The notes: generated from the letters alone by a model not told the origin. Positions 8,691 to 32,700 are shown, counted from the first letter of the stretch. The stretch is DNA of 64,000 nt from Rhodanobacteraceae bacterium (GCA_031425695.1 JANPJV010000076.1:3261-67260); one strand, 5' to 3'. Numbers and translations: made by a program.

Positions 8691-8706
8691 GTCCAACTTG
8701 GCTTGC

Positions 8707-8964: not shown

Positions 8965-9011
8965 GATACCGGCCTCACCCATCCATCGCCCTCGCGGGCG
9001 CAACGTGACCC

Positions 9012-10241: not shown

Positions 10242-10245
10242 ACCC

Positions 10246-10281
10246 GTCAAGTAGCCCGCTTCGCGGGCAACATGACCTACG
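10246..10281. repeat. REP family A unit
   Basis: Sequence gtcaagtagcccgcttcgcgggcaacatgacctacg. Confidence 0.7.
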
Positions 10282-10294
10282 AAAGCGAGGATCC

Positions 10295-10699: not shown

Positions 10700-10708
10700 G
10701 CGTTGGAC

Positions 10709-10809
10709 GTAGGTCATGTTGCCCGCGCCAGCGGGCTACTTGACGCTTTGGCGGTCGCCCCGTTCAACAGCCGTCAAGTAGCCCGCTGCGCGGGCAACAT
10801 GATTACGAG
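10709..10809. repeat. inverted REP family A doublet
   Basis: gtaggtcatgttgcccgcgccagcgggctacttgac at 10709-10744 pairs with gtcaagtagcccgctgcgcgggcaacatgattacgag at 10773-10809. Confidence 0.75.
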
Positions 10810-10829
10810 AGCATTTCTCTAAGCGTCGA

Positions 10830-12053: not shown

Positions 12054-12110
12054 CTGCGCTTCTCCTTAAGTCCGTGAGCTCAAGAATCGGCGTAGGTGTC
12101 GTGACGCGCC

Positions 12111-12124
12111 TTGACTTGGGTCAG
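12111..12124. promoter_or_regulatory. FNR-type box TTGACttggGTCAG, oriented for the porin gene
   Basis: Half-degenerate palindrome. Its centre lies 64.5 bp upstream of the porin ATG. Confidence 0.5.
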
Positions 12125-12201
12125 GTCCGATTGACGATCGCTTGGATCACGCCACGGCGACGGCAGGTGGCGCACACACGATCGAGCGGAACCGCGGCGG
12201 G

Positions 12202-12215
12202 TTGACTTGGATCAA
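12202..12215. promoter_or_regulatory. FNR/DNR-type box TTGACttggATCAA upstream of nirK
   Basis: Near-perfect palindrome. Its centre lies 71.5 bp upstream of the nirK ATG. Confidence 0.7.
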
Positions 12216-12279
12216 GGCGGCTGGACCGGCTGACACGCAATCTTCGCTCACGGTCTTTTGGGTCACAGTCGAGGAAACC

Positions 12280-13809
12280 ATGAAACACTTCGCGCGCCAC
12301 GTGCTCCTGCTCACGGCAATCTCCGTGTCCCTGTTCGGATGCGATCAGCAGGCGAGCAACTCAGCTCCCAAAGCGGCGCCGCCGGCCGCGGCAGCGCCCG
12401 CCGATACCGGCGGCTCGGCCAAAGGCGATTTCGGCCCGCCGCAAGGTGAGCCGATCCAGGCGATCCTGACCAGTCCGCCGAATGTGCCGCCGCCGACTGG
12501 CCGCACGGCGCCGGCGAAGGTAATCGTGAATCTGGAAGTGATCGAAAAAGAACTGCCGATCGCCGAGGGCACGACCTACACTTTCTGGACCTTCGGCGGC
12601 ACCGTGCCGGGCAGTTTCATCCGCGTGCGCCAGGGCGATACGGTCGAGTTCCACCTGAATAATCACCCCGATTCGAAGATGCCGCACAACATCGATTTGC
12701 ACGGCGTCACCGGACCCGGTGGCGGCGCTGCATCGAGCTTTACGGCCCCGGGCCATTCCTCGCAGTTCACCTTCAAGGCGCTCAACCAGGGCCTGTACGT
12801 GTACCACTGCGCCACCGCGCCGGTGGGCATGCACGTCGCCAACGGCATGTACGGATTGATCCTGGTCGAACCGCCCGAAGGCATGCCGAAGGTCGACAAA
12901 GAGTTCTATGTGATGCAGGGCGATTTCTACACGGTCGGCAAGTTCCGCGAGAAGGGCCTGCAGGCCTTCGACATGCAGAAAGCCATCGACGAAAACGCGA
13001 CCTACGTGCTGTTCAACGGAGCCGAGGGCGCGCTCACCGGCGACAATGCGATCAAGGCCAGCGTCGGCGAAAGCGTGCGGCTGTACGTGGGCAACGGCGG
13101 CCCCAACTTGGTGTCGAGCTTTCACCTGATCGGCGAGATCTTCGACAAGGTCTGGTACGAAGGCGGCACCCGCTACCAGGAGAACGTGCAGACGACTTTG
13201 GTGCCGGCCGGCGGCGCGATGATTGCCGATTTCCGCCTCGAGGTTCCGGGCAGCTACGTGCTGGTCGATCACTCGATCTTCCGCGCCTTCAACAAGGGCG
13301 CGCTCGGCATCCTCAAGGTCGACGGTCCCGAGAACAAGGCCATCTATTCCGGCAAGGAAGTCGATTCTTCTTATCTCGGCGACAAGGCCGCCAGCATGGC
13401 CGCGGTGTCGGTCGCTGCGCAGTCGACGGCGGCGGGCACGCTGACCCCGGAAGAGCAGAGCAAGGCCGGTCAGGCGTTGTACGCAGGCACCTGTTCGGTG
13501 TGCCACCAGAACAACGGCGAGGGCATGGCCGGCGTGTTTCCGCCACTGGCGAAATCCGACTACGTCGCCGCGCGCAGCCACGATGAACTGATCGCGATCG
13601 TGCTCAACGGGCTGACGGGTCCGGTCAAGGTCAACGGCCAGGACTACAACTCGGTGATGCCACCGATGAGCCAGCTCACCGACGACGAGATCGCCAACAT
13701 CCTCACCTACGTCAACACCAGCTGGAGCAACGCTGGTGGCGCCGTCAGCAAAGAGGAAGTGGCCAAGGTGCGTGGCTCCACCGCACGTGCTGCAGGTGCG
13801 GCGCACTGA
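12280..13809 (+). CDS. nirK: copper-containing nitrite reductase, lipoprotein form with a C-terminal cytochrome c domain
   Basis: Has the lipobox LFGC, copper ligand motifs HNIDLHG and [20 protein letters not shown], and a C-terminal CSVCHQ...MPPM. GAGGAA precedes ATG 12280. Confidence 0.9.
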
Positions 13810-13819
13810 GCCGACGGCG

Positions 13820-14689
13820 ATGAGCGCGATGCTGGATCGCTTGCGTAGCCCGGAGTACGCGCAGCGTTCTCCGGGGATTCGGCTCGCCCGCAACCCCCGG
13901 AGAACGCTTTGCGTACTCCGGGCTACGTGCCTCTCGCTGCTTTCCTGCGGCGCGCACGCCGCTGAACCGGCTTGGCCCGTGCTCCCCGGCAATGCCGAGT
14001 TCAAGACCGTGCTGGCGTACGAGGACACCGCCAGCACGGTCAGCATCCCTTCCTTCGAGTTGCAGCCGCAGCCGGTGACCAATGCTGAGTTTCTGCGCTT
14101 CGTGACGGTGGCCCCTGAATGGCGGCGCGGCACGGCGCCGACGATCTTCGTCGACGCTGAGTACCTCGCGCACTGGAGCGGCCCGTTGAGTCTGGGCAAG
14201 AACGCGCAAGCGGACCAGCCTGTGTCGCAGGTCAGCTGGTTTGCGGCCCAGGCCTATTGCGAGGCGCAAGGCGCACGACTGCCGACCTGGTCCGAGTGGG
14301 AATACGCGGCCGCCGCCGACGCGACGCGCGTCGATGCCCGACAGGATCCGGCCTGGCGCGAGGCCATCCTCGCCTGGTACTCGAAGCCGTCGGGGCAACC
14401 CCTTGCTGAGGTCGGCCAGGCTGCAGCCAATGTCTACGGCGTCCAGGACCTGCATGGTCTGGTTTGGGAGTGGGTCGATGACTACGCGGCAATGCTCGTG
14501 TCGGCGGACAACCGCGACCAGGGCGACGCCGATATCCTTAAATTCTGCGGCGCCGGTGCGCTGTCGACCAATGACCGCGAGAACTACGCCGTGCTCATGC
14601 GCATCGCCATGCTGTCGGCGCTCGAAGCGGTCGATACGACGCGCAATGTGGGGTTTCGGTGTGCGCGGGATTTGGGGGGAAGGCGATGA
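13820..14689 (+). CDS. nirV: formylglycine-generating-enzyme (SUMF1) family protein, NirV-like
   Basis: Contains an FGE-sulfatase-like core (QVSWFAAQAYCEAQGARLPTWSEWEYAA, GLVWEWVDDY, NVGFRCARD) and lies immediately downstream of nirK. The N-terminal region carries an embedded palindrome. Confidence 0.75.
   Translation: MSAMLDRLRSPEYAQRSPGIRLARNPRRTLCVLRATCLSLLSCGAHAAEPAWPVLPGNAEFKTVLAYEDTASTVSIPSFELQPQPVTNAEFLRFVTVAPEWRRGTAPTIFVDAEYLAHWSGPLSLGKNAQADQPVSQVSWFAAQAYCEAQGARLPTWSEWEYAAAADATRVDARQDPAWREAILAWYSKPSGQPLAEVGQAAANVYGVQDLHGLVWEWVDDYAAMLVSADNRDQGDADILKFCGAGALSTNDRENYAVLMRIAMLSALEAVDTTRNVGFRCARDLGGRR
13843..13927. repeat. about 85 bp near-perfect palindrome inside the nirV 5' coding region
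   Basis: Arms are gcgtagcccggagtacgcgcagcgttctccgggg and ccccggagaacgctttgcgtactccgggctacg. Confidence 0.8.
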
Positions 14690-14844
14690 ACATATTTGAA
14701 GTGCGGCGCTCCGCTTTGGCTCATTGGATCTCCGGCAAGTTCACGTCCGGCCCTCGGCATAGCCTCGGGCGTTCGCCGGCGCAGGACGCTGCGCGTCCAC
14801 AGCGCACCGCCTCACGCAAAGCGGCGCGGAGCGCCGCACTCCAA

Positions 14845-15390
14845 ATGTTGCTCGCGCTCTGGACCTGCTCGGCGGCCGTCGCATCCCCCCTCCCCAACGA
14901 TTCCCTCTACCAGCTCGACGCCCAGTTAACCGCTCACGACGCCCGCGATTCCAAACTCGCTGACCGGCGCGGTCGGCCACAGTTGGTGGCGATGTTCTAC
15001 ACCTCGTGCAAGTTCGTCTGCCCGCTGATCATCGACAGCGTCAAGGGGGTCGAGCACGTGCTGACGCCGGCCGAACGCGCCGACATCGACTTTTTGCTGA
15101 TCTCGATCGATCCCGAGCGCGACGATGTCGCCGCGCTCGCGTCGGTTGCAGGCAAGCGCAAGCTCGGCACGCACTGGACGCTCGCGCGTACCGAGGAACG
15201 CAACGTGCGCAAGCTCGCCGCATTGCTCGGCGTGCGCTACCGAGCACTGGCCGACGGCGAGTTCAACCACACCAGCACGCTGTACCTGCTTGACGCCGAT
15301 GGCCGCAAGCTCGCCAGCAGCTCCAAGCTTGGGACGGTGCCTGACGCGGAATTTGTTGCGGCGGTGCGTGCGGCGCTGAGCGCGAAATAA
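14845..15390 (+). CDS. SCO1/SenC family copper chaperone
   Basis: Has the CxxxC motif FYTSCKFVCP and a thioredoxin-like fold. ATG 14845 gives a signal peptide (MLLALWTCSAAVA). An alternative ATG at 14686 overlaps the nirV stop but reads through a REP doublet. Confidence 0.75.
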   Translation: MLLALWTCSAAVASPLPNDSLYQLDAQLTAHDARDSKLADRRGRPQLVAMFYTSCKFVCPLIIDSVKGVEHVLTPAERADIDFLLISIDPERDDVAALASVAGKRKLGTHWTLARTEERNVRKLAALLGVRYRALADGEFNHTSTLYLLDADGRKLASSSKLGTVPDAEFVAAVRAALSAK

Positions 15391-15433
15391 CATCGGTGCT
15401 CCACCGGTCTGCTTGCCGAGAAACCTACCTCGC

Positions 15434-15447
15434 TTGATCCCGATCAA
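15434..15447. promoter_or_regulatory. FNR box TTGATcccgATCAA upstream of azurin
   Basis: Perfect half-sites. Its centre lies 68.5 bp upstream of the ATG. Confidence 0.75.
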
Positions 15448-15508
15448 GGCAGCTTCACTGCTCACGGTTCAAGCTGCCCCTATCTTCTACCCATCCAAGG
15501 AAATACCC

Positions 15509-15949
15509 ATGCGCATTCTCACCACTGCCGGCCTCCTGCTCTTCGCCGGATTCGCCCAGGCCGAAAACTGTGTCATCGATCTCAAAAGCGATGACGCCAT
15601 GAAGTTCGACCAGGCCTCCGTTACCGTGTCGGCGTCGTGCAAGAGCATCGAGATCAAGCTCGCGCATACCGGCAAGATGCCGGTTGCAGCAATGGGCCAC
15701 AATGTCGTCATCACCACCACACCCGACTTCATGCCGGTTGCCCAGGACGGGATGAAGGCAGGCCTGCCGGCGAACTATTTGAAGGCGGGCGATACGCGCG
15801 TCATCACCAACACCCAGTTCGTCGGCGGCGGCGAAAGCACCAGCGTCAAGTTCGACGGCGCCAAGCTCAAGGCCGGCGGCGACTACACCTTCTTCTGCTC
15901 GTTCCCGGGACACTGGGCGATCATGAAGGGCAAGGTGGTGGTCGAGTAA
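15509..15949 (+). CDS. azu: azurin (blue copper protein)
   Basis: The mature sequence AENCVIDLKSDDAMKFD...MGHNVVI...FFCSFPGHWAIMKG carries the azurin Cu ligands. It has a signal peptide, and AAGGAAA precedes the ATG. Confidence 0.9.
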   Translation: MRILTTAGLLLFAGFAQAENCVIDLKSDDAMKFDQASVTVSASCKSIEIKLAHTGKMPVAAMGHNVVITTTPDFMPVAQDGMKAGLPANYLKAGDTRVITNTQFVGGGESTSVKFDGAKLKAGGDYTFFCSFPGHWAIMKGKVVVE

Positions 15950-16043
15950 TCTCGGCCGAAAGTCTTCGACTTTCGCCCGGTACCTAGATTCCGCCCGCGG
16001 AGCAAAAACGTGGTTTTTGCTGCGCGATCACTCGATGCCTTGC

Positions 16044-16196
16044 GTAGTTCACGTTGCGCCCACGCGGCCTTGGTTGCGTCACGGAATTCATCGGGCGCTA
16101 CGTGACAATCGGCGATGCCGCAACGGCGCGTGTCACGTAGCGCCCGAACGTTACCATCGCTCGGCCTTGGAGTTCGCGGGCCCAACGTGACCTACG
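16044..16196. repeat. REPIN-like composite palindromic element (family A), approximate bounds
   Basis: Outer pair is ...cacgttgcgcccacgcgg / gcgggcccaacgtgacctacg. Inner pair is gggcgctacgtgaca / tgtcacgtagcgccc. Confidence 0.6.
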
Positions 16197-16220
16197 GTCA
16201 CGTGACCCAATTCACTCAAG

Positions 16221-16234
16221 TTGACCCAGATCAA
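16221..16234. promoter_or_regulatory. FNR box TTGACccagATCAA upstream of ccoN
   Basis: Near-perfect palindrome. Its centre lies 61.5 bp upstream of the ccoN ATG. Confidence 0.75.
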
Positions 16235-16288
16235 TAGGTCGCCCGCTGGCCTTCTCGATACTGCAATGAACCGCAATCGAGACCGTCC

Positions 16289-17734
16289 ATGGGCGACACC
16301 GCCGCCAGCGATACCTACAGCGACAAGGCTGTCCATCAGTTCACCATCGCGGCCATCGCCTGGGGCGTGATCGGGATGGCGGTGGGCGTGCTGATCGCCG
16401 CCCAGCTGTACTGGCCCGCGCTCAATTTCGACATTGCCTGGTTGAGCTACGGCCGCCTGCGTCCGATCCACACCAACGGCGTCATTTTCGCGTTCGGCGG
16501 GTCAGCACTGTTTGCCACCAGCTTGTATGTCGTGCAGCGCACCTGCCACGTTCGACTGATTTCCGATCGGCTTGCGAGCTTCGTGTTCTGGGGCTGGCAG
16601 GCGGTGATCGTCGCGGTCGTGATCACGCTGGCGATGGGGATCACGCAGGCGAAGGAATACGCTGAGGCCGAGTGGCCGATCGATATCCTGATCACGATCG
16701 TCTGGGTCGCCTACGGCTGGCTGTTCTTCGGCACCATCGCGAAGCGCAAGGTCAAGCACATCTACGTCGCCAACTGGTTTTTCGGCGCCTACATCATCGG
16801 CATCGCGCTGCTGCACATCATCAACAACCTGGTGGTGCCGGTAAGCCTGTGGAAGTCGTATTCGGTGTACACGGGTGCGGTCGATGCGATGGCGCAGTGG
16901 TGGTACGGGCATAACGCGGTCGGCTTCATGCTGACCACCAGCTACCTCGGGATGATGTACTACTTCGTGCCCAAGCAAGCCGGGCGGCCGATCTACTCGT
17001 ATCGGCTCTCAATCGTGCACTTCTGGGCGCTGATCTCGATCTACATGTGGGCCGGCCCGCACCACCTGCAGTACACCGCGCTGCCGGACTGGGTGCAGTC
17101 GGTCGGCATGGTGTTCTCGCTGATCCTGTTGGCGCCATCCTGGGGCGGTGCCATCAACGGCATCCTGACCCTGTCGGGCGTGTGGCACAAACTGCGCACC
17201 GACCCGATCCTCAAGTTCCTGATCGTGTCCTTGAGCTTCTACATGATCGCGACCTTCGAGGGTCCGATGATGTCGATCAAGACGGTCAACTCGCTCTCCC
17301 ACTACACCGACTGGACCATCGGCCATGTTCACGCCGGTGCGCTCGGCTGGGTGGCGATGATCACCATGGGCTCGCTGTACTCGATGTATCCGCGCCTGCT
17401 GGGCCTCTCGTCGATGTACTCGACGCGGCTCATCGACCTGCACTTCTGGGTACACACGGTGGGCGTCGTCTTCTACATCGTCTCGATGTGGATTGCCGGC
17501 ATCACCCAAGGGTTGATGTGGCGCGCCACCAATGCCGACGGCACGCTCACCTACAGTTTCGTCGAGTCATTGGTCGCCACCTATCCCTACTACCTCGGGC
17601 GGCTCCTGGGCGGCCTGCTGGTGCTGGCCGGCATGAGCGTCATGGCCTGGAACTTCTGGCGCACCTGGCAACTGGCGCGCGGCGCAGCAGAGCAGCCGGT
17701 GCTGGTGCCGCATGCGGCGGAGGCGCGGGCATGA
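16289..17734 (+). CDS. ccoN: cbb3-type cytochrome c oxidase subunit I
   Basis: 481 aa, polytopic, with heme-copper motifs ([37 protein letters not shown]). Confidence 0.95.
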
Positions 17735-17787
17735 GGAACGATTGGTCGGGGATGGCGGCTTTCGTGTGGCGCCTCCGAGGAGCCGGC

Positions 17788-17948
17788 GTAGGTCAGGTTG
17801 CGCCCACGTCGTGCTCGACCAAGGCGACACGGGGGAGCGGGCGTTACCTGACAACCGCCAGCATGGATTCCGAAAAAGAGCTGTCAGGTAACGCCCGACC
17901 CATTGCATCGCCACGCCCGAGCGTTTCGCGGGCGCAACCTGACCTACG
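17788..17948. repeat. REPIN-like composite palindromic element (family A) between ccoN and ccoO
   Basis: Outer pair is gtaggtcaggttgcgcccacg (17788) / cgcgggcgcaacctgacctacg (17927). Inner pair is gggcgttacctgaca / tgtcaggtaacgccc. Confidence 0.75.
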
Positions 17949-17984: not shown

Positions 17985-18602
17985 ATGAGCCTCGGACACG
18001 AGAAAGTCGAAAAGAATGTGGTGCTGATGGGTCTCTTGATCGCCGGCGTGATCTCGCTCGGTGGCCTCGCTGAAATCGTGCCGCTGATGTACCAGGCGGA
18101 GGCAATCGAGCCGTTGCCGGGCGTGGTCCCGTTTCCGGCGCTCGAGCTCGCCGGCCGTGAGATCTACATGCGCGAGGGCTGCGGCAACTGCCATACGCAG
18201 ATGATCCGCACACTGCGCTTCGAAACCGAGCGTTACGGCCACTACTCGCTCGCCGGTGAATCGGTCTACGACCGTCCCTTCCTGTGGGGTTCCAAGCGCA
18301 CCGGTCCGGATCTGGCGCGCGTCGGTGGGCGCTATTCCGAGGATTGGCATCGCGTGCATCTGATCGACCCGCGCGCGGTCGTTCCCGAGTCGAACATGCC
18401 TGGCTTTCCATGGCTGGAATCGGCGCCGGTCAGCGCCGAAGGCGTAGTCGCCAAGATGCGCACCCTGCAATGGATGGGCGATCCCTACAGCGACGAGCAG
18501 ATCGAGAACGCGCCCAAGGAGCTTGCCGGCAAGGACGAGCTGGACGCGATGGTGGCCTACCTGCAGGGCTTGGGCAAGAACGCGCCGAAGACGGGGGGCT
18601 AA
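17985..18602 (+). CDS. ccoO: cbb3-type cytochrome c oxidase subunit II (monoheme)
   Basis: Contains the heme motif CGNCHTQMIR and the typical N-terminus MSLGHEKVEKNVVLM. Confidence 0.95.
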   Translation: MSLGHEKVEKNVVLMGLLIAGVISLGGLAEIVPLMYQAEAIEPLPGVVPFPALELAGREIYMREGCGNCHTQMIRTLRFETERYGHYSLAGESVYDRPFLWGSKRTGPDLARVGGRYSEDWHRVHLIDPRAVVPESNMPGFPWLESAPVSAEGVVAKMRTLQWMGDPYSDEQIENAPKELAGKDELDAMVAYLQGLGKNAPKTGG

Positions 18603-18606: not shown

Positions 18607-18795
18607 ATGTTATCGGGAATCATCACTGCGGTTTTGCTGGTGCTGTTCGTCGGCGGCTGGGCGTGGTTGTGGCGGCCGGCGCTGAGGGAGCCGTTGGAGG
18701 CGGCGGGGCGGTTGGCTTTGGAGAGTGAGCAAGCAAGAGCGTCCGGACAAGGTCCGGACCCACGTGAGCAGAGCGAGCAGGAGCCGCGCCGATGA
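18607..18795 (+). CDS. ccoQ: cbb3 oxidase small subunit CcoQ-like, with a REP-derived C-terminal tail
   Basis: MLSGIITAVLLVLFVGGWAWLW forms a single TM helix between ccoO and ccoP. The tail ...ASGQGPDPRE is encoded by a family B REP at 18737-18766. The ORF ends in an ATGA overlap with ccoP. Confidence 0.6.
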   Translation: MLSGIITAVLLVLFVGGWAWLWRPALREPLEAAGRLALESEQARASGQGPDPREQSEQEPRR

Positions 18796-19703
18796 GTGCC
18801 TTCTGGATCGGCTTCATCGCCCTGCTGATCCTGGCCAACATCGCGGGTGCGGTTTGGCTGCTGCTGTGGACCGCGAAGCGGCGTCCGGGTGATCCAAAGC
18901 CCGACGACACCAGTCATTACTGGGACGGCGATATCACCGAATTCAACAAGCCGATGCCACGCTGGTGGATCAATGCCTTCTATCTGACCATCGTTTTCGG
19001 CATCGGCTACTTTGCCTGGTACGGTGGCCTGGGAACTTATCGTGGCTGGGGTGGCTGGAGCTCGCAGGCCGAGCATGCGCAGGAAAAGGCGCATTGGGAC
19101 CAAGCACTTGCACAGTCGCTGCAGGTCTATGAGGGCCAGCCAATCGACCGCCTCGCGCTCGATCCACAGGCGCTGGAACTCGGTCGCTCGATCTTCAGCA
19201 ACACCTGCGCCGCCTGCCACGGTTCGTCCGGACAGGGCGCCATTGGCTATCCCAACCTCGCCGACAGTGTCTGGCATTGGGGTGGTACGCCGGAAGCCAT
19301 CACCGCCAGCGTGCTCGACGGAAGGCAGGCGGCGATGCCGGCGTTGGGGGGCGCCGTTGGCGGGCCACAGGGCGTGCGCGAGCTGGCCGTCTACGTGCAA
19401 TCACTGTCGGGCGAATACGCCGATCCGGAACTGGCGGCGGCGGGTTCAGTGCGCTTTGCCGGGATCTGTGCGGCTTGCCACGGCGCGGATGCGAAGGGCA
19501 ATGTGGCTTTCGGCGCGCCTGATCTCACCGATCGCTACACCCTCTACGGGCGCGACGCACAGAGCATCCGCGACACCATCAACAACGGACGCAGCGGGCA
19601 GATGCCGGCGCATGCCGCGCTTCTCGGCGACACCCGAGCGCGCCTTGCGGCGGCCTACGTGTGGTCGCTCTCGCATCCGCCGATGCAGGTTGCCCAACCG
19701 TGA
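18792..19703 (+). CDS. ccoP: cbb3-type cytochrome c oxidase subunit III (diheme)
   Basis: Has two heme motifs, CAACHGSSGQG and CAACHGADAKG, plus an N-terminal TM helix. Confidence 0.92.
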   Translation: MSAFWIGFIALLILANIAGAVWLLLWTAKRRPGDPKPDDTSHYWDGDITEFNKPMPRWWINAFYLTIVFGIGYFAWYGGLGTYRGWGGWSSQAEHAQEKAHWDQALAQSLQVYEGQPIDRLALDPQALELGRSIFSNTCAACHGSSGQGAIGYPNLADSVWHWGGTPEAITASVLDGRQAAMPALGGAVGGPQGVRELAVYVQSLSGEYADPELAAAGSVRFAGICAACHGADAKGNVAFGAPDLTDRYTLYGRDAQSIRDTINNGRSGQMPAHAALLGDTRARLAAAYVWSLSHPPMQVAQP

Positions 19704-20002
19704 TCGAGGATGGCGCCATCGACCACCCGCCGCGGCCGCTGGCGCAGCGGCTCGGGGCGATCCTGTGGCCGTCGTTCTTCGCCGCCGGCGTCGCCACCAT
19801 GGTGTTCTTTGCGCTGGTCGATCCGCTCGAACTGCGCGACATCACCCTGCCTGCGGTCGAGATCACCCGCAGCATGGGCTATAGCATCGGCTTCTTCCTG
19901 TTCTGGGCGGCGACCGCATCCTCGAGCTTGTTCACCTGGTTGCTGTTGCGACCGCCGAGTCGTTTCACCCATCCGCTCGCCGACGAACATCGCGGTGGGT
20001 AG
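19700..20002 (+). CDS. small two-TM membrane protein, function unknown
   Basis: GTG 19700 overlaps the ccoP stop (GTGA). The sequence reads ILWPSFFAAGVATMVFFAL...IGFFLFWAATASSSLF. It lies between ccoP and ccoG. Confidence 0.4.
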   Translation: MIEDGAIDHPPRPLAQRLGAILWPSFFAAGVATMVFFALVDPLELRDITLPAVEITRSMGYSIGFFLFWAATASSSLFTWLLLRPPSRFTHPLADEHRGG

Positions 20003-21623
20003 ACCCATTGCATCGCGGCTGCTCGAAGACGCCGGCTCCAACTATGTTTCCGAGCGCAAGATCTATCCCCGCGATGTCAGGGGTCGTTTCGACCGGCTGC
20101 GCACCTTGGCGGTGTTCTGGCTGCTCGGCATGTACTACAGCTTCGCCTGGTTGCGCTGGGATGGTCGCCAGGCCGTGCTGTTCGACTTGCCCGCACGCAA
20201 GTTCCACATATTCGCGCTCACGTTCTGGCCGCAGGACTTCGTGTTCCTCGCCCTGCTGCTGATCATCCTGGCACTGGCGCTGTTCTTCTTCACCGCGCTG
20301 GCCGGCCGTCTCTGGTGTGGTTATGCGTGTCCGCAGACAGTCTGGACCGAGGTCTTCCTCAAGATCGAACACTGGATCGAGGGCGATCGAGGCGCGCGCA
20401 TGAAGCTTGACGCCCGCCCCTGGAACCGCGACAAGCTGCTGCGCAAGTCTGCCAAGCACATCGTGTGGATGTTGCTGGCGCTGTGGACGGGATTCACTTT
20501 CGTCGGCTACTTCACGCCAATTGCCGATCTCGGCGCGCGCCTGCCGTCCCTGCAGTGGAACGGCTGGGAGACGTTCTGGGTGCTCTTCTACGGCTTTGCC
20601 ACCTGGGGCAATGCGGGTTTCCTGCGCGAGCAGGTGTGCAAGTACATGTGCCCCTATGCGCGCTTCCAGAGCGCGATGTTCGACCGCGACACGTTGATCA
20701 TTGCCTACGATCCGCTGCGCGGCGAACCGCGCGGTTCCCGCAAGCGCGGCCTGCCCAGCGTGCTCGAGCGTGCCCGCGGGCTCATCGATCGGGCACTTGC
20801 CTATGGGTTCGTGTTTCGGGCGGGGCGGCATGTAGCGGCGGCGGATGCGCAGGCGGAGGCCAATGCCAGAAGCATCGCGGCCATGGCCGCTCCCACCCAA
20901 GGCAAAGGCATCGCGGCCATGGCCGCTCCCACCCAAGGCACGAGCATCGCGGCCATGGCCGCTCCCACGGCGCTGATGAGCGACCCGCTGCCGCGTTTCC
21001 TGGGCGAGGAGCTCGGCGACTGCATCGATTGCACCTTGTGCGTCCAGGTGTGCCCGACCGGCATCGATATCCGCAACGGGCTGCAGTACGAATGCATTGC
21101 CTGCGGCCTGTGCGTGGATGCATGCGATTCGGTCATGGACAAGATGCAGTACCCGCACGGCCTGATTCGCTATTCGACGCAGAATGCGATCGACAACCAG
21201 CCGAGCCGCGTCCTGCGCCCACGCATTTTCGTCTACGGGCTGCTGTTGCTGGCGATGACCGCGGGCTGGGCGATTGGCATCAGCACCCGCGATCCTTTGA
21301 TTGCCGAAGTACTGCGCGACCGCAATGCGCTCTATCGCGAAACCAGCGCGGGCATCGCCAACGGCTATACGCTCAAGCTGGTCAACAAGCGCCGCGAGGC
21401 GCGCACGCTGGTGGTGCGCCTGGCCGACAATGCCGCGGGCATCATTCTGGCCGAGGGGCAACTGACCCTGCAGCTGGAACCCGAACAGGTAATGGCGGCG
21501 CCGGTCGAGCTGGTCAGTCGCAACGCAGCCAGTGGACGGCAACCGGTGGTCTTCCTGATCGAAGACACGGATGGGACCTTGCGGGCGCGCATCGACAGCA
21601 GCTTTTTCGGGCCAGTCCGATGA
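19995..21623 (+). CDS. ccoG: cbb3 oxidase accessory ferredoxin CcoG/FixG
   Basis: Contains RLWCGYACPQTVW, CKYMCPYARFQS, and the 2x[4Fe-4S] region CIDCTLCVQVCPTGIDIRNGLQYECIACGLCVDAC. The start is inferred at GTG 19995. A 3x36 bp insertion is present. Confidence 0.85.
   Translation: MGRPIASRLLEDAGSNYVSERKIYPRDVRGRFDRLRTLAVFWLLGMYYSFAWLRWDGRQAVLFDLPARKFHIFALTFWPQDFVFLALLLIILALALFFFTALAGRLWCGYACPQTVWTEVFLKIEHWIEGDRGARMKLDARPWNRDKLLRKSAKHIVWMLLALWTGFTFVGYFTPIADLGARLPSLQWNGWETFWVLFYGFATWGNAGFLREQVCKYMCPYARFQSAMFDRDTLIIAYDPLRGEPRGSRKRGLPSVLERARGLIDRALAYGFVFRAGRHVAAADAQAEANARSIAAMAAPTQGKGIAAMAAPTQGTSIAAMAAPTALMSDPLPRFLGEELGDCIDCTLCVQVCPTGIDIRNGLQYECIACGLCVDACDSVMDKMQYPHGLIRYSTQNAIDNQPSRVLRPRIFVYGLLLLAMTAGWAIGISTRDPLIAEVLRDRNALYRETSAGIANGYTLKLVNKRREARTLVVRLADNAAGIILAEGQLTLQLEPEQVMAAPVELVSRNAASGRQPVVFLIEDTDGTLRARIDSSFFGPVR
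20874..20968. repeat. in-frame 36 bp tandem repeat (2.6 units), each unit carrying the 14 bp perfect palindrome gcggccatggccgc
   Basis: Units start at 20874, 20910 and 20946. The array translates to IAAMAAPTQGKG IAAMAAPTQGTS IAAMAAPT inside ccoG. Confidence 0.9.
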
Positions 21624-22288
21624 GCAAGCCGGTTGCTGAGCGCGCCTGGTCGCAGCCGATTCTTTGGCTGGTGCTGGCGCTGCCGGCGGCGATGGTCGTG
21701 GCCGGCGTGTTCATGGTGCGCAGCGCGATCGGCATGGGCAGTACCGATGCCACCACCGATCGTGTTCTCAAGACTGCACAGGTGCAGACCACGGACCTGA
21801 CGGCCGACCTCAACGCACGCGACGCCGGCCTCATGGCGCAGCTGCAACTGGTGGACGGCTTCATTGAAGTGGTCCCGACCGCCGGCGTGTTTGCACGCGC
21901 GCAGCCACTCACCCTGCTGCTGCGCCATCCGATCGATACGAGGGCCGATCGCGTGTTGCAAATGCAGCCCGACGCGCGTCGTTGGCGGGTCGCGTACACC
22001 GCCGATAGCAAGCACGACTGGCTGCTCGAGCTGCGCCCCGCCGACGGTCGCTGGCGTCTGCAGGGGCGTTGGGTGCGGGGAAATTCAGGGGCGCGATTGC
22101 AGTCATCGCTACGCGTGGGCAGTGTTGCTCTCGTAGGTCATGTTGCCCGAGAACGCGGCAGGAGGGCGGTGCCTTTGGTAGGTCATGTTGCCCGCGCCAG
22201 CGGGCTACTTGACATGTCACCGACGGTGAAAGGCCGTCAAGTAGCCCGCGTTCGCGGGCAACATGACCTACGAGAGCACTCGCGATGA
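21620..22288 (+). CDS. ccoH: FixH/CcoH-like cbb3 assembly protein with a REP-encoded C-terminal extension
   Basis: ATGA overlap with ccoG. It has an N-terminal TM helix (ILWLVLALPAAMVVAGVF) and a FixH-like body ending ...WRLQGRW. The frame then stays open through the REPs to 22288, where it overlaps the ccoI ATG. Confidence 0.7.
   Translation: MSKPVAERAWSQPILWLVLALPAAMVVAGVFMVRSAIGMGSTDATTDRVLKTAQVQTTDLTADLNARDAGLMAQLQLVDGFIEVVPTAGVFARAQPLTLLLRHPIDTRADRVLQMQPDARRWRVAYTADSKHDWLLELRPADGRWRLQGRWVRGNSGARLQSSLRVGSVALVGHVARERGRRAVPLVGHVARASGLLDMSPTVKGRQVARVRGQHDLREHSR
22130..22273. repeat. cluster of three REP family A units inside the 3' end of the ccoH ORF
   Basis: The gtaggtcatgttgccc motif occurs twice in forward orientation, and gtcaagtagcccgcgttcgcgggcaacatgacctacgag occurs once inverted. 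Confidence 0.8.
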
Positions 22289-24762
22289 GCGCGCTCCAAC
22301 CCTGCCGCCACTGCGGCGAACCGCTGCCAGCAGCCGCCACCACCGAGCTCTTCTGCTGTGCCGGTTGCGCTGCCGCCGCGCAATGGATCGAAGCCGCCGA
22401 GCTCGCCGACTATTACCGTCTGCGCACGCAGGCAGCCGGAAAGGTCGACGCCAGCGACCCCGACTTCAGGGTCTGGGACCGCATTGATCTGCAGTCCGAG
22501 CACGCGCTCGAGGTCGCGGGCGGGCGCGAGATTACGGTGCTCACCGACGGCATGCGCTGCGCCGCCTGCGCATGGCTGATCGATCGCGCGCTCAGCCGCG
22601 AACCGGGCGTGGTCGAGTGCTCCGCCAATGCCGTGACCGGACGTATCCGGCTGGTCTGGGATCCAGTGCGCGGGCGCTTGTCGGATGCGCTCGCGCGCCT
22701 CGCCAGTCTCGGCTACCGGCCTTTCCTCGCTGGCGGCGCAGCGCGTGAGCAGGAGCAACGGCGCCAGCGCAACCGGGAACTGGCGCGCATCGGCGTGGCT
22801 GCACTCGGAGCCATGCAGGCGATGATGCTGGCCGAGGTCCTCTATCTCGACATCGATGCCACCATGGACCTGGCGACGCGAGATTTTTTCCGCTGGATCA
22901 CCTTGCTGGTGTCGACACCGGTGGTCTTCTATGCCGGCTGGCCCTTCATCCTCGGTGCCTGGCGCGAGCTGCGTCACGGGCTGCCGGGCATGGACACGCT
23001 GGTCGCGTTCTCCAGTCTGCTGGCCTTGTTCGCGAGCGCCTGGGAGACCGTGCAAGGCGGCCCGCAGGTCTGGTACGACGCTGCCGTCATGTTCGTCTTC
23101 CTGCTGCTTGCCGCACGCATGCTCGAAGCGCGCACACGCTTGGCCGCCAACGCCCAGGTCGATGCGCTGGCGCGGGCGCGGCCGGCGTTCGCCACGCGCA
23201 TCACTGCGGATGGCGCAGCCGAATTGGTGCCACTGGCAGCGCTGGATGTTGGTGATCTGGTGCGGGTTGCTGCGGGCGAAGTGCTGCCCGCCGATGGACT
23301 ATTGCAGGAGCCCGCAGCGAACTTCGAGGAAGCCTTGCTGACTGGCGAATCACTGCCGGTCGCGCACAGCGACGGCGACCTCGTGTATGCCGGGAGCTTG
23401 TGCCGAGACCGCCCGGTGCGGCTGCTCGTCAGCGCGGTCGGCACGCACACGCGGCTGTCGCAACTGGTGCGCCTGGTGGAGCAAGCGCAGGCGCAGCGCC
23501 CAGCGCTGGCGCGGGTCGCCGACCGCATCGCTGCGGTGGTCATCATCGTGTTGCTGCTGTCGTCCGCGCTGGTCTACTTTGCCTGGCGCGCGCATGCGCC
23601 GGAGCTCGCCTTCCAGACCACGCTGGCGATGCTGGTGATCAGCTGCCCCTGCGCGCTCTCGTTGGCGGTGCCGGCGGCCTTTGCTGCCGCGCACGGGGCG
23701 CTCGCGCGCATCGGCGTGCTGGCCGTCCGCCCGGATGCACTGACACGCCTCGCGCGCGTCACCGATATCGTGTTCGACAAGACCGGCACGCTCACGGATG
23801 CGCAGGCGCGGCTCGACCGCTGCGAGATCTTCGGCGACCTGTGGGTTCGGACCTTGTCCGAACGCTTTTCTACCAACCTTTCCGTCGATCAAGCCCTGCG
23901 CATTGCGACTGCGCTGGAACAGGGCGAAACCCATCCGCTGGCAACGGTGTTTCAGGCGCACGAACCTGAGTGCCGGGACTCGGGACTCGGGACTCGGGAC
24001 TCGCGAGCGACATCTGCGACGCAACGCGCGATCGAGCGAAAACTGGTCCCGGGCCAGGGTGTCGAAGGCATCGTCGACGGGCGACACTGGCGCCTCGGCC
24101 AGGCCGGCTATGCCGCTGGCCGCAGCGACGACGGCGCACTCTGGCTCGGCGATGGCGTGCAGGCATACGCACGCTTCTGCATCGGCGAACAGCCGCGAAC
24201 AGACGCCGCATCGGCGATCAATCGCCTGCGCACGCTGGGACTGCGAATCCATCTCGCCAGTGGCGATGCCAACGCGCGCGTCCAATCGCTCGCACGCACA
24301 CTTGGCATCGACGCCGCACGTTCGCGTCAATCGCCGCAGGACAAGCTGCGCTTCGTCCGCGGCCTGCAGGCGCAAGGCGCAATCGTCGGCATGATCGGCG
24401 ATGGTCTCAACGACGCACCGGTGCTTGCCGGCGCCGATGTCTCGATGAGCTTCGGCGCCGGCGCGGCGCTGGCACAGCGATCGAGCGACCTGGTGCTCAC
24501 CGGCAGCCTGCTCGGGCGCATTCCCGAAGCGATCATGATCGCGCGACGCACGCGCCGGATCGTTCGCCAGAACTTTGCGTGGGCGCTCGGCTACAACCTG
24601 CTGGCCTTGCCGCTGGCGGCGACTGGACAGGTCGAACCGTGGCTCGCCGCGCTCGGCATGGCGCTGTCCTCGCTGCTGGTCACTCTGAATTCGCTCCGAC
24701 TCGCGCGCGCACCGCGCGTGGCTCCACCCAGCGTGCATCCCGCGATGGCGGTGGCCACATGA
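22285..24762 (+). CDS. ccoI: copper-translocating P1B-type ATPase CcoI/FixI
   Basis: Contains N-terminal CRHCGEPLP and CAGCAAAAQ, plus CPCALSLAVP, DKTGTLT and GDGLNDAP. It carries a family B REP at 23841-23867 and a heptamer repeat at 23975-24002, both in frame. Confidence 0.9.
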   Translation: MSALQPCRHCGEPLPAAATTELFCCAGCAAAAQWIEAAELADYYRLRTQAAGKVDASDPDFRVWDRIDLQSEHALEVAGGREITVLTDGMRCAACAWLIDRALSREPGVVECSANAVTGRIRLVWDPVRGRLSDALARLASLGYRPFLAGGAAREQEQRRQRNRELARIGVAALGAMQAMMLAEVLYLDIDATMDLATRDFFRWITLLVSTPVVFYAGWPFILGAWRELRHGLPGMDTLVAFSSLLALFASAWETVQGGPQVWYDAAVMFVFLLLAARMLEARTRLAANAQVDALARARPAFATRITADGAAELVPLAALDVGDLVRVAAGEVLPADGLLQEPAANFEEALLTGESLPVAHSDGDLVYAGSLCRDRPVRLLVSAVGTHTRLSQLVRLVEQAQAQRPALARVADRIAAVVIIVLLLSSALVYFAWRAHAPELAFQTTLAMLVISCPCALSLAVPAAFAAAHGALARIGVLAVRPDALTRLARVTDIVFDKTGTLTDAQARLDRCEIFGDLWVRTLSERFSTNLSVDQALRIATALEQGETHPLATVFQAHEPECRDSGLGTRDSRATSATQRAIERKLVPGQGVEGIVDGRHWRLGQAGYAAGRSDDGALWLGDGVQAYARFCIGEQPRTDAASAINRLRTLGLRIHLASGDANARVQSLARTLGIDAARSRQSPQDKLRFVRGLQAQGAIVGMIGDGLNDAPVLAGADVSMSFGAGAALAQRSSDLVLTGSLLGRIPEAIMIARRTRRIVRQNFAWALGYNLLALPLAATGQVEPWLAALGMALSSLLVTLNSLRLARAPRVAPPSVHPAMAVAT
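23975..24002. repeat. heptanucleotide tandem repeat (gggactc) x4 inside ccoI
   Basis: The sequence reads cc gggactc gggactc gggactc gggactc gcg and translates to RDSGLGTRDS. Confidence 0.9.
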
Positions 24763-25094
24763 ATATCCTGCTGCTGCTGATTCCGGTCAGCCTGTTGCTT
24801 CTGCTCGCCGCCATGCTGGCCTTCGTCTGGGCGCTGCGTGCGGGGCAATTCGAGGACATGGATACGCCGGCGTTGGATGTGCTGGTGGAGCCTGTCTTGC
24901 TCCCCTCTCCCCTGCTTCTGGGGAGAGGGGCCGGGGGAGAGGGCGCTTTCTCCTCCCAAAGCGCCCTCTCCGGCCCGCCAGCGCAGCTGCCGGGCGTTCG
25001 AGCTCGCGCGCCGCATGCGGCGCAAGCGTGCCAGCTCTCACCCCCCGACCCCTCTCCCGCTTCGCGGGAGAGGGTAGCAAAACATGCCCCTTGA
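24759..25094 (+). CDS. ccoS: CcoS/FixS cbb3 maturation protein with a REP-encoded tail
   Basis: ATGA overlap with ccoI. MNILLLLIPVSLLLLLAAMLAFVWALRAGQFEDMDTPA is a typical CcoS. The frame then continues through two CCCTCTCCC/GGGAGAGGG REPs (24900-24945 and 25035-25076) to 25094. Confidence 0.65.
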   Translation: MNILLLLIPVSLLLLLAAMLAFVWALRAGQFEDMDTPALDVLVEPVLLPSPLLLGRGAGGEGAFSSQSALSGPPAQLPGVRARAPHAAQACQLSPPDPSPASRERVAKHAP

Positions 25095-25809
25095 CCTCCT
25101 CACCCTCACCGCCGCGCTGCTGAGCGGGTTGCTCGGCAGTGCTCACTGTGCGGCGATGTGCGGTGGCATCGCCACCAGTTTCGCCACGGTGCGCGCGCAC
25201 GGCGGCTGGTGGGTGGCGGCGCAGCCCAATCTGGGCCGCATCCTTGGCTATGGGCTGGCGGGATCGATTGCCGGCGCCTTCGGAAGTGGCATCGTCGCGG
25301 TCGCGCAAGACCCTTGGATCAGCATCGGCGCGCGCGTGCTGGTTGGGCTGGTGATGGTGGTGACGGCGTTGCGGTTGCTCGATCGCCGCGGTCGCCTGGC
25401 GCCGCTGGCCAGGCCAGGCGCACGCCTGTGGCAGTGGCTGCGACCGCTGCAGCGCGCGCTGTTGCCGGCCAACACGGCACCACGACGGCTGGCCCTCGGG
25501 ATGCTCTGGGGCTGGATGCCGTGCGGGCTCAGCACCAGCCTGCTCACCGTGGCCTGGCTGCAGGCAGACGCGGCCAACGGCGCGTTCACCATGCTCGCCT
25601 TCGGCCTCGGCGGCCTGCCGGTGATGCTGCCGCTGACCTTTGCCGGCGCGCGCGTCGGACAGTTCCTGCATCGCGGCGCGTGGATACAATCGTTCGGCGC
25701 GCTCATTCTCGCGGCCGGCCTGCTGACCATCGCCGCACCCTGGCTGATGCATTACCCTGGTCTGCATTCGGCCCTCGTGGCACTGGGATGCGCGCATGGA
25801 CCGGCGTGA
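25084..25809 (+). CDS. TauE/SafE- or DsbD_2-like membrane protein commonly linked to ccoGHIS
   Basis: The N-terminus carries GSAHCAAMCGGIA, followed by about 6 TM helices. Confidence 0.6.
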   Translation: MPLDLLTLTAALLSGLLGSAHCAAMCGGIATSFATVRAHGGWWVAAQPNLGRILGYGLAGSIAGAFGSGIVAVAQDPWISIGARVLVGLVMVVTALRLLDRRGRLAPLARPGARLWQWLRPLQRALLPANTAPRRLALGMLWGWMPCGLSTSLLTVAWLQADAANGAFTMLAFGLGGLPVMLPLTFAGARVGQFLHRGAWIQSFGALILAAGLLTIAAPWLMHYPGLHSALVALGCAHGPA

Positions 25810-29793: not shown

Positions 29794-32700
29794 CTAAGCG
29801 ATACGGACGCGGCTCCGGGTTGTCCACCAACGGCCCACCAGCTTGCGCAACTCGCTGTACCACAGGACGGTACTCGCCATTCCCATGCAAACCAACCACT
29901 GGCTCAAGTCCAACGGCACCGTTCCGAAGGCGCGATTAAGAAAGCCGAGGTTGACGACGGCGATTTGCAGCAGCAGCGAGAGCGCGATCGCCGCCCATAG
30001 CCAGGGGTTGGAGAACGCTCCGGCGAATGCGCTCACGGTCTCGGAGCGCGCATTGAAGGCGTTGAACAGGTGCGCGAGCACCAGCACCGTGAAGCCCGCG
30101 GTGCGCGCCGTGGCCAAATTCTCCGACCCGTCGATGAGTCCGCCGGATAGATAGAAGTCCATCGTCAGCAAGCTCACCAGCGCGACCACCAGGCCAATTT
30201 GAATGACGCCAGACCACATCGCCAAGTCAATCACCCGTTCGGTCAGCGGTCGCGGCTTGCGCGCCATGACGTCGTCGGTCGGTGGATCGACACCCATGGC
30301 CAGCGCCGGCCAGGAATCGGTCACCAGGTTGATCCACAGGATCTGGGTGGCGAGCAGCGGCAGCACGACTTCGCCGCCGCCACTGGAAAGGCCGATCACC
30401 CCGGCGCCGACAACCCCGAGAAATACCGTCAGCACCTCACCCATGTTCCCGGAGAGCAAGTAGCGCAGGAACTTGCGGATGTTGTCGACGATGCCGCGCC
30501 CTTCACGCACCGCCTCGACGATGGTGGCGAAGTTGTCGTCGACCAGGATCATCTTGGCCGCTTCCTTGGTTACCTCGGTGCCGGCAATGCCCATGGCGAT
30601 GCCGATGTCCGCGGATTTGAGCGCCGGTGCGTCGTTTACGCCGTCGCCGGTCATGGCGACGATGTTGCCATCGGCCTGCAAGGCATCGACGATGCGCAAT
30701 TTGTGTTTCGGTGCCACGCGCGCGAACACCGACGTCGCCCGCACAGCATCGGCGAACGCGGCCTCGTCCAGCGCATCCAGCTCAGGCCCGGAGAGGGCGG
30801 CCGCCCCGGCATCGACAATGCCGAGGTCGGCCGCGATGCGCGCGGCCGTGCGCGGATGATCGCCGGTGATCATGATCACGCGAATGCCCGCCCGGCGCGC
30901 TTCGCGGATGGCCGCCGCCGCTTCCTGACGTGGCGGATCGATGATCCCCACGGTGCCGACGTAGATGAGCGCGTGCTCCAGCGCCTCGCCCGGCGCGATT
31001 TCCTCGCCGGCCGTGAGCGGCCGGTAAGCCACGCCCAGGGTGCGCAGGGCCGCGTCGGAAAGGGCCGCCACCTCGCTGAGGATGCGTGCCCGCGCGGCCT
31101 CGTCGAGAGCGACCACGTCGAGCCCTGAACGCACCTGCGTGCAGCGTTCGAGCAAGACGTCCGGGGCGCCCTTGGCGATCAGCACGGTAGTGTTGCCGTG
31201 TTCGTGATCGACCTCGATGGTCGACATCATCTTGCGATCCGAGGTAAACGGGATCTGCGCCATGCGCGTGAAGCGCTGCGCGCGCCGCTCGGACACGCCG
31301 AGCTTGCGTTCCGCCACCAGGAACGCAACTTCGGTGGGATCGCCGTGGATTTCCCACTGGCCATCCTGGCCCTCGCGCAGCTCGGCATTGCCGGCCAGGC
31401 TGCCGCCACTCAGCATCACGATCTGCTCGGCGTGCAGGTCGCCGCTTTCGAGCTTGGCCCCGGCGAGCTCGACCTGCCCGGCGGGTGCGTAACCGACTCC
31501 GGTCACGGCGGTGCCACCTGAGGCAGTCAGTATCTGCACGATGGTCATCTCACCGCGGGTCAAGGTGCCGGTCTTGTCCGAGGCAATGACCGAGGCCGAC
31601 CCCAAGGTCTCCGCCGACGACAGCTTCTTGACGATCGCATGGTGTTTGGCCATCCGCTGCACGCCGAGCGCCAGCACCACGGACAGAATCGCCGGCAGGC
31701 CTTCAGGCACGGCTGCCACTGCCAATGACACGCCGAGCAGCAAGGCGTCGATGACATCGGCAATGCTGCGGCGGTCGGAGAGCAGCAGCACTGTCGCAAC
31801 CACGATGACCGCAATGATCAGCACCGCAACGCCCAGCATGCGGCCGATGTGCGCGATCTCCTTCTCGAGTGGCGTCGGCTCCTCGACCGTCGCTTCGAGC
31901 ATCTGCGCAATCGAGCCGACCTCGGTGTCCATCCCGGTCGCGGTGACCACGGCGCGGCCGGTGCCTTGCGCGACGGCAGTGCCCTTGAACAGCATGTTCA
32001 GCCGATCGCCGAGTGGCACCGACGCGGCAAGCGTCGCCGCATCCTTGAGCACGGCCTCGCTCTCGCCGGTCAGCGCCGCTTCCTGCACGCGCAAGGCGGT
32101 CGCTTCAATCAGCCGCGCATCGGCGCCGACCGCGTCGCCTTCGCCAAGGACCAGCAGGTCGCCGCGCACCAATTCCGCGCTCGGCACGCGCAGCAACTTG
32201 CCGTCGCGCATCACTGCCGAGGTGGCCTGGATCATGCGTGCCAACGCCGCTACCGCGTCGGCGGCCTTGGCCTCCTGCACAAATCCCAGAACGCCGTTGA
32301 GCAGCACGATTGCCGCGATCACCGTCGCATCCACCGGCCAGCCGTGCCGGCCTTCGATCACCCACGCCACCACGGCGATCACAATCGCGGCCAGCAGCAG
32401 ATAGATCAGCGGGTCCTGGAAGTGCGCCAGCACGCGGCGCCAGGTCGCCAGCTTCGCCGCAGCACGCAATTCATTCGGGCCATTTTCCGCCAGCCGACGT
32501 GTCGCTTCTTGCGCCGTCAGGCCGTTCTCGAGATCCGCGGCGTGCTGGGTCGCAACTGCCTGCGCATCTTTGAGGGAAGGATCGTCGGCTGCGGGTTTGG
32601 CGGCCGCCGACTGCACCCTCGGCGGCTTCTTTGGAGCGGCGGCGGTGGCAATTGCGGAGGGTGCCGCTGCAGCATTGGGTCCGGCGACGGCAGGCGTCGC

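Follow-up and report, generated by a model that had tools for sequence, protein, structure and literature searches.

The 64,000-nucleotide (nt) stretch of DNA analyzed here (the window; Rhodanobacteraceae bacterium, GCA_031425695.1, JANPJV010000076.1:3261-67260) contains a cco operon, for a cbb3 oxidase, in which palindromic repeats of several families, among them repetitive extragenic palindromic (REP) sequences, lie in frame inside the coding sequences. Judging from its sequence, the host is a Lysobacteraceae-like bacterium carrying a ccoNOQP-orfX-GHIS operon; the G+C content of the window is 62-69%. Genes were assigned by a Pfam scan and by exact matches to NCBI gene calls. The operon begins with ccoN (16289-17734, plus strand; 481 amino acids (aa)), which matches an NCBI gene call exactly and has no internal repeat, followed by ccoO (17985-18602; 205 aa), ccoQ (18607-18795, plus; 62 aa), ccoP (18792-19703; 303 aa), a small predicted membrane open reading frame (ORF) of 100 aa (19700-20002, plus), ccoG (19995-21623, plus; GTG start, 542 aa), ccoH (21620-22288, plus; 222 aa), ccoI (22285-24762, plus; 825 aa), ccoS (24759-25094, plus; 111 aa) and a DsbD_2 gene (25084-25809; 241 aa). 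The Pfam domains follow in operon order: FixO, FixQ, FixP_N, Fer4_18 with FixG_C, FixH, a P-type ATPase with ATPase-cat_bd, and FixS. The FixQ match covers CcoQ residues 6-40 and scores 26.3 bits, under the 29-bit cutoff; the identity of the gene is backed by position and homology. A preliminary description of this DNA opened three of the frames at 18523, 20465 and 23970, but these are the limits of maximal ORFs, and the true gene starts lie further downstream.

Multi-copy palindromic repeats were confirmed in the sequences of five genes, ccoQ, ccoG, ccoH, ccoI and ccoS, and in each they lie in frame. The five genes were initially taken to be consecutive; five genes do carry inserts, but the repeat-free ccoP and the equally repeat-free 19700-20002 ORF stand between ccoQ and ccoG. 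In the tail of ccoQ, a REP-D unit (18732-18769, plus; first placed at 18737-18766) encodes QARASGQGPDPRE, and its 32-nt core is identical (32/32) to intergenic copies at 8743-8774 and elsewhere. Three tandem REP-C units of 36 nt each, reading GTGGGAGCGGCCATGGCCGCGATG on the minus strand, occupy 20860-20968 (minus) of ccoG, where they encode (S/G)IAAMAAPTQG(K/T) three times in frame, in a variable loop that splits Fer4_18. The three REPs reported in ccoH at 22130-22273 are present within a REP-A composite, a triplet or REPIN (an inverted REP doublet), of 153 nt or 51 codons (22126-22278, plus). It consists of a truncated unit (22133-22158), a full unit (22178-22213) that is identical at 36/36 positions to intergenic 10709-10744, and an inverted unit (22236-22271).

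Two inserts are found in ccoI. The first, a REP-D unit at 23841-23879 (plus), carries its GTGG head on the sense strand, inverted relative to the ccoQ copy and to an intergenic array, and forms a 13-codon insert at CcoI residues ~518-530. The second is a heptamer-run insert at 23956-24003 (plus; CcoI residues 558-573) that includes (CGGGACT)x4 at 23974-24001. The proposal that both ccoG and ccoI carry REP-derived in-frame insertions thus holds for REP-C in ccoG and REP-D in ccoI but not for the heptamer run, which has the makeup of a microsatellite and not of a REP. In the sense RNA, the ccoI REP-D segment 23845-23872 (plus) would form a GC-rich hairpin of 8 bp and then run into GCTTTTCT, resembling an intrinsic terminator within the coding region; both the hairpin and the T-run recur in the intergenic REP-D copy at 8707-8740. 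Elsewhere in ccoI, positions 24334-24425 show a 92-nt inverted match of 74% to 30620-30711, which lies in another P-type ATPase gene (1097 aa, minus strand 29794-33087, with Cation_ATPase_N/C and HMA domains); this is most likely a conserved motif region of paralogs.

The ccoS tail is the most composite. A repeat-B unit at 24896-24949 (plus), in frame and reading TTGCTCCCCTCTCCCC..GGGGAGAGGGG..GGGGGAGAGGGC, is followed by a middle segment (24971-25031, plus) with the perfect palindrome GCGCCGCATGCGGCGC and by an inverted repeat-B unit (25032-25084, minus) that reaches the DsbD_2 start codon. The two outer units correspond to the REPs first placed at 24900-24945 and 25035-25076, the middle palindrome being an addition. 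As a whole, the tail is an inverted pair of ~50-nt CCCCTCTCCCC/GGGGAGAGGGG hairpin units around the palindromic segment. Compared with miniature inverted-repeat transposable elements, it has ends resembling terminal inverted repeats (TTGCTCCCCTCTCCC / GGGAGAGGGTAGCAA), its repeat units occur separately elsewhere, and no target duplication is identifiable. We considered the middle of the tail as ancestral sequence left between two inserts and rejected this, as the segment matches a repeat on another contig (L086, 615-690; 80%) and aligns poorly with the related operon on contig L083.

In the first third of the window, nearly all intergenic gaps hold short palindromic repeats of several families. 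REP-A is a GTAG-headed imperfect palindrome (GTAGGTCATGTTGCCCGCG..CGGGCTACTTGAC) often arranged as inverted doublets, namely at 6044-6191, in a pair from 10709, and at 16035-16196 and 17787-17948; a 17-mer of the family matches the window 9 times against 0.12 expected. The inverted pair of REP-A type at 16035-16196 is extragenic and lies upstream of ccoN. The REPIN of the same type at 17787-17948, with 67-nt arms (17787-17853/17882-17948), lies untranslated in the ccoN-ccoO spacer, a gap of 250 nt in the window versus 14 nt in L083. Further inverted doublets are formed by the ccoH units (22178-22213/22236-22271) and the repeat-B units of ccoS (24896-24949/25032-25084). REP-D is a GTGG-headed unit with GTCCGGAC..GTCCGGAC (10 window matches versus 0.01 expected); its tandem array at 8729-8908, directly 3' of a norB-like gene, comprises three 60-nt units that are 92-100% identical, and an inverted REP-D unit at 8697-8740 precedes the array. 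REP-C, also GTGG-headed, has 36-nt units with a GCGGCCATGGCCGC core; similar heads occur in the loci of three relatives. Together, REP-A and REP-D occupy at least six other sites in the window, all between genes. The fourth family, repeat-B, consists of GGGAGAGGG hairpin units; it lacks the GTAG/GTGG head and is therefore only REP-like. The forward-strand gene gaps over 5141-16289 are mostly REP-bearing (6044-6240, 8697-9014, 10245-10286, 10704-~10802, 13844-13927, 14817-14845 and 16035-16196).

REPIN/REP-RAYT systems (RAYT, REP-associated tyrosine transposase) feature inverted REP doublets that form long hairpins, a GTAG or GTGG head and many near-identical copies, which are typically extragenic. 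By sequence features alone, REP-A, REP-C and REP-D are assignable to the REP/REPIN type: palindromes of 20-40 nt with predicted stem-loops and a GTAG/GTGG head. A metagenome scan with a REP-A 36-mer returned 11 microbial-mat contigs that have only repeats in common with the window. REP-A, repeat-B and the middle palindrome all recur on them, the REP-A and repeat-B copies being extragenic or at ambiguous 5' ends; the copies of the ccoS units and the middle segment are 93% and 80% identical, respectively. The 93% copy of the 24896-24949 unit is on L087, and an inverted pair is on L085. The hairpin type of ccoS is also extragenic in Vulcaniibacterium thermophilum (L007).

To compare the operon with its relatives, we used 83 loci, comprising 80 from Lysobacteraceae and three closer contigs (L081, L082 and L083). 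Within the species collection, the nearest genomes belong to the Lysobacteraceae (Luteimonas, Thermomonas, Pseudoxanthomonas and Lysobacter), with 61-67% CcoG identity. Amino acid identity is 81-82% for L081 (81% in CcoH, as for L082) and 71% in CcoI for L083, which contains a complete operon with the same cco gene order and a ccoN of the same length. None of the 83 loci has the inserts. Exact matching found no REP-D copy in any of them, nor did a search allowing up to 3 mismatches in L083, and local inverted repeats are absent from L083 across 11 kb. The protein lengths differ in keeping with the inserts in four of the genes: 222 aa in CcoH versus a median of 170 in relatives (164-205), 111 versus 65 (53-115) in CcoS, 542 versus 515 (511-524) in CcoG, and 825 versus 793 in CcoI. 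The residues added amount to 51 to 53 in CcoH (basic-rich), 44 to 48 in CcoS and 27 net in CcoG, while CcoI gains 13 from REP-D and ~16 from the heptamer-run insert. The estimate of 20 to 60 REP-encoded residues added to small assembly proteins is therefore borne out for CcoH and CcoS but not for CcoQ, whose 62 aa are inside the family range (42-77, median 51.5; 65 in the nearest relative).

Alignments locate the inserted segments directly. The ccoH composite is missing from L081 and L082; in the DNA alignment its flanks are ...GGCAGTGT and CTCGCGATGA, and the tail of L081 runs directly into ATGA. CcoG has 13 residues in L081 where the window has a 40-residue REP-C stretch, and the segment from RFQS to CxDC spans 116 aa in the window versus 86-94 aa in 71 relatives. 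Among 40 CcoI homologues, the alignment columns of the REP-D insert are filled in 2-3 and those of the heptamer insert in 0-2. In CcoS, the acidic tail typical of the family is replaced by unrelated sequence. REP-free alleles are thus represented by L081, L083 and the 80 Lysobacteraceae loci, and the ancestral stops revealed by the alignment are today's overlapping junctions. Relatives with the same tails but no REP similarity, which the preliminary description had named as the sign of genuine coding sequence, were not found, as no relative has homologous tails. A search of the 59-aa REPIN-encoded CcoH tail against a set of 5.8 billion proteins gave no matches, but it missed the parent protein too and is hence uninformative. 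These comparisons support the view that the embedded repeats are insertions and not ancestral coding sequence.

Some relatives have long tails of their own, and these were examined as candidate REP insertions. The longest (CcoS of 110-115 aa, CcoH of 190-205 aa and CcoQ of 77 aa) were rejected as such, being of low complexity and hairpin-free; only one of the 15 longest tails (in L070) contains a hairpin of at least 9 bp, and the length variation reflects low-complexity expansion. The expanded CcoS, CcoH and CcoQ tails of L020, L065, L012, L042 and L079 (up to 115, 205 and 77 aa) consist of short tandem or low-complexity sequence, the 77-aa CcoQ tail including an (ND)n run. As the expansions are non-palindromic, they indicate that the tails are generally free to vary in length.

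The inserts look recent, given that their cores match intergenic copies exactly and that their G+C content at third codon positions (GC3) resembles that of non-coding sequence: 0.51 in the tail versus 0.80 in the core of CcoH, and 0.70 versus 0.82 in CcoS. Their positions support tolerance at tails and loops of variable length. The tail inserts lie past the ends of the FixQ, FixH and FixS domains, at residues 40, 151 and 42, respectively. For CcoI, an AlphaFold model based on 41 aligned sequences (mean predicted local distance difference test (pLDDT) score 77.2) predicts both inserts to be coil between confidently modeled flanking elements; residues 520-526, 562-573 and 575-577 have pLDDT <50, and the REP-D insert scores ~51.

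From ccoQ onward, seven stop/start overlaps join the genes, at 18792-18795, 19700-19703, 19995-20002, 21620-21623, 22285-22288, 24759-24762 and 25084-25094, and their types are, in order, ATGA, GTGA, 8 nt, ATGA, ATGA, ATGA and 11 nt. It was seen directly that, as first reported, the ORFs of ccoQ, ccoH and ccoS end only at the overlaps, with ATGA at 18792, ATGA at 22285 and 11 nt at 25084. The GTGA at 18764 was discarded as an alternative junction for ccoQ, since it matches the reading frame of neither gene. In 73 of 74 relatives, ccoQ and ccoP meet in an NTGA overlap that contains the ccoQ stop, and the 11-nt ccoS/DsbD_2 overlap (ATG-N5-TGA) is found in 47 of 62. By this comparison the overlapping junctions are ancestral, and since they are conserved in relatives, the extended ORFs end exactly at the stop positions of their unextended ancestors. 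Overlaps of this kind have the structure expected of translationally coupled genes, whose functional dependence is here only predicted.

The repeats at two of these junctions form very stable predicted structures. The minimum free energy is -117.7 kcal/mol for the ccoH tail (shuffled mean -78, z -9.4) and -134.5 kcal/mol for the ccoS tail (shuffled mean -100, z -6.6). The ccoH repeat ends 7 nt before the ccoI start and the ccoS repeat at the DsbD_2 start; in the relatives inspected by eye, the ccoI and DsbD_2 starts have no good Shine-Dalgarno sequence of their own. In the window, the right repeat-B arm provides the sole Shine-Dalgarno-like sequence (GGAG) upstream of the DsbD_2 start.

Taken together, these observations are probably explained by selfish insertions that were tolerated at permissive sites and filtered for preservation of the frame. 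In a REP-rich genome, recent repeats would have colonized an operon with almost no intergenic space, as its seven stop/start-overlap junctions indicate, and for lack of such space they would have landed inside coding sequence. The survivors would be low-harm insertions that left the protein cores and the gene junctions intact: those near the C-terminal ends of the single-pass membrane proteins CcoQ, CcoH and CcoS, in disordered tails and a few codons before the ancestral stop, and those in CcoG and CcoI, in surface loops that vary. All of these insertions lengthen their gene by a multiple of three bases and are free of stops in the frame that is read. The REP-encoded residues would then be passenger sequence. 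For the internal ccoG and ccoI inserts, preservation of the frame is a mere condition of a functional gene, while for the tail insertions the filter may have been the need to keep termination at the overlapping junction. Translating ribosomes may melt the stable hairpins in transit and be delivered to starts that have a poor Shine-Dalgarno sequence or none at all; were a stop to fall within the repeat, the hairpin would stay unmelted, and a frameshift would carry ribosomes across the next start.

A stronger form of this idea, which we put forward only tentatively and consider rather doubtful, makes the overlapping junctions themselves a selective sieve. REPINs would persist there only as translated, frame-preserving tails, as ribosome transit would neutralize hairpins (about -118 to -135 kcal/mol) by which the next start, devoid of a Shine-Dalgarno sequence, would otherwise be buried and polarity caused. 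If true, the operon would be a natural experiment in which coupling limits the sites open to selfish repeats and shapes the birth of new C-terminal sequence. Of the two possibilities raised in the preliminary description, tolerance of the extensions is supported by the variable tails and loops and by low-pLDDT coil, whereas selection to preserve coupling, with three post hoc cases on its side, is plausible but unproven.

Several observations weigh against the account of tolerated and filtered selfish insertions, or against its stronger form. REP-C is clear as a family only inside ccoG. A Pfam scan of 29 ORFs in the 64-kb window gave no Y1_Tnp match, and a RAYT gene was also looked for among the small ORFs of the window and none was found. 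No relative of any cco protein at ≥90% identity was found, and the single assembly offers no within-species alleles. The NTGA overlap of ccoH with ccoI, conserved in all three nearest relatives, is present in only 29 of 76. The untranslated REPIN of the ccoN-ccoO spacer is tolerated, so hairpins in the operon are not intrinsically lethal, which tells against the sieve in particular. Stop-free passage through four of the five elements is expected by chance, and the case for selection therefore rests on the three events divisible by 3. Finally, CcoQ of the REP-free L083 ends in ...PRASGQGGHP, and RASGQG is common to it and the REP-D-encoded tail of the window; the codons differ, mostly at third positions (window 18741-18759 versus L083 4057-4087). 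The shared motif could be due to chance, to a decayed shared insertion, to an older site in ccoQ, or to conversion rather than insertion.

The most serious rival to selfish insertion under a frame filter is pure chance or neutral drift, which we regard as unlikely. Under it, the GC-rich repeats are poor in stops, one third of insertions preserve the frame, coupling is under no selection, and for such tails the next stop reached is the old one. REP-C, REP-D, repeat-B and the heptamer run are indeed free of stops in most of their frames, 40-80% of equally long segments taken at random from the window are stop-free as well, and the wide variation of tail lengths in relatives by low-complexity expansion implies that the tails are unconstrained. 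Yet the net length of the tail insertions is divisible by 3 in all three cases, and the ccoH REPIN, which has 2 and 4 stops in its two unused forward frames, is translated in the sole stop-free one. The joint probability of length and frame choice is ~0.005 under a naive neutral model, a post hoc value with n=3; moreover, the frame-shifted alternatives would carry ribosomes over the next start codon.

Co-option, by which the basic CcoH tail or the new CcoS tail would modulate cbb3 assembly, or the hairpins would tune ccoGHIS stoichiometry, seems to us very improbable. The great stability of the hairpins, the GGAG that the GGGAGAGGG sequence of the right repeat-B arm supplies to the DsbD_2 gene, and the terminator-like sense strand of the ccoI REP-D unit would fit such a role. 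However, the inserts match intergenic copies and have non-coding GC3, so that nothing shows selection on the peptides; homologous tails occur in no relative, and the acidic tail of CcoS was exchanged for unrelated sequence. As for an artefact, in which assembly or sequencing errors created the inserts or the open frames, or wrong gene calls conceal earlier termination, we give it almost no credence: the data do come from one assembly, all the proteins are singletons at 90% identity and repeats are classic sites of misassembly, but at seven independent inserts both flanks continue the same gene in the same frame, in-frame stops are absent, and the same repeat families appear on independent metagenome contigs.

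The statement that REPs are normally strictly extragenic was too strong, since both in-frame intragenic REPs (PMC3733652) and C-terminal repeat extensions (PMC3184786) have been published. The parts of the work of Di Nocera, De Gregorio and Rocco (2013, PMC3733652) that deal with intragenic repeats describe GTAG/CGTC REPs in frame inside genes for known proteins, singly, as dimers or in groups, encoding 20-30 aa and sometimes present twice per ORF. Terminal and inter-domain sites are argued there to be neutral, inactivating insertions having been purged, and the cases named come from Opitutus terrae, Thioalkalivibrio and Rickettsia conorii and concern DNA synthesis and repair genes, uvrA/uvrB among them. 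The window resembles these cases in having GTAG/GTGG-headed palindromes in frame within genes. Compared with the cases described in those parts, it differs in combining seven inserts from at least four families in one operon and in that three inserts directly precede overlapping stop/start junctions that are conserved; moreover, its Lysobacteraceae-like host and its cco target genes are not those of the named cases.

The classic precedent is that of the Rickettsia palindromic elements (RPEs; RPE-1 and others; Ogata et al. 2000, cited in both PMC3733652 and PMC3184786), selfish palindromes in frame in functional genes. Like them, the window has palindromic inserts in frame at function-compatible positions, but the analogy is functional only and no sequence relationship is expected. 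RPEs, as those citations present them, measure 100-150 bp and inhabit reduced intracellular genomes, whereas the repeats of the window are of REP/REPIN type and mostly extragenic, and their high-GC genome is a free-living one. C-terminal extensions can also arise when small mobile repeats whose frames are open become fused to the 3' ends of ORFs (Delihas 2007; Croucher 2011; Hot 2011, in PMC3184786). In the instances summarized there, the extension usually stops in or after the repeat, while the tails in the window cross the whole repeat to the ancestral overlapping stop and leave the junction unchanged. The inverted REP doublets are like those of REPIN/REP-RAYT systems (Bertels and Rainey 2011; Nunvar 2010), although no RAYT gene turned up among the ORFs scanned in the 64-kb window.

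The window is thus a case of the already documented in-frame intragenic REP, particular in its density within a single operon and in the return of its tails to the ancestral overlapping stop. With seven inserts from at least four families, it is an unusually dense and clean case of repeat DNA turned into protein sequence, and documents de novo C-terminal sequence derived from REPs. For annotation, functional domains should not be read into the tails and loops that CcoH, CcoS, CcoG and CcoI have in this lineage. What is known of cbb3 oxidase and of REPs in general is unchanged; the operon itself offers a testable system for coupling as a filter of selfish-element insertions.

The 19700-20002 ORF gave no matches in the Pfam scan. 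It has tblastn matches of 94-100 aa in 78 of the 80 Lysobacteraceae loci and is an annotated gene in L083; it appears to belong to the cco cluster as an unnamed, lineage-specific member. The region 3829-15949, which lies upstream of the cco genes, contains a microaerobic/denitrification gene set. It comprises genes for a HemN-like radical SAM protein, a Crp/Fnr regulator, a NorB-type nitric oxide reductase with a cytochrome c domain, NnrS and SirB, as well as a multicopper oxidase with a cytochrome c domain (NirK-like), an FGE-sulfatase-like protein, SCO1/SenC and an azurin-like protein.

Near the start of the window, a phage-type tyrosine integrase gene (1169-2473, minus) with Arm-DNA-bind_3, Phage_int_M and Phage_integrase domains has beside it, at 2619-2679, a 29-nt near-perfect hairpin with a T/A run; together they may mark the edge of an integrated element. 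Further downstream, two pairs of direct repeats, 37836-38080/43738-43982 (245 nt, 78% identity) and the AT-rich 40436-40520/45770-45854 (85 nt, 82% identity), are each spaced ~5.3-5.9 kb apart and suggest that a block of genes was duplicated and has a conserved non-coding element upstream of it.

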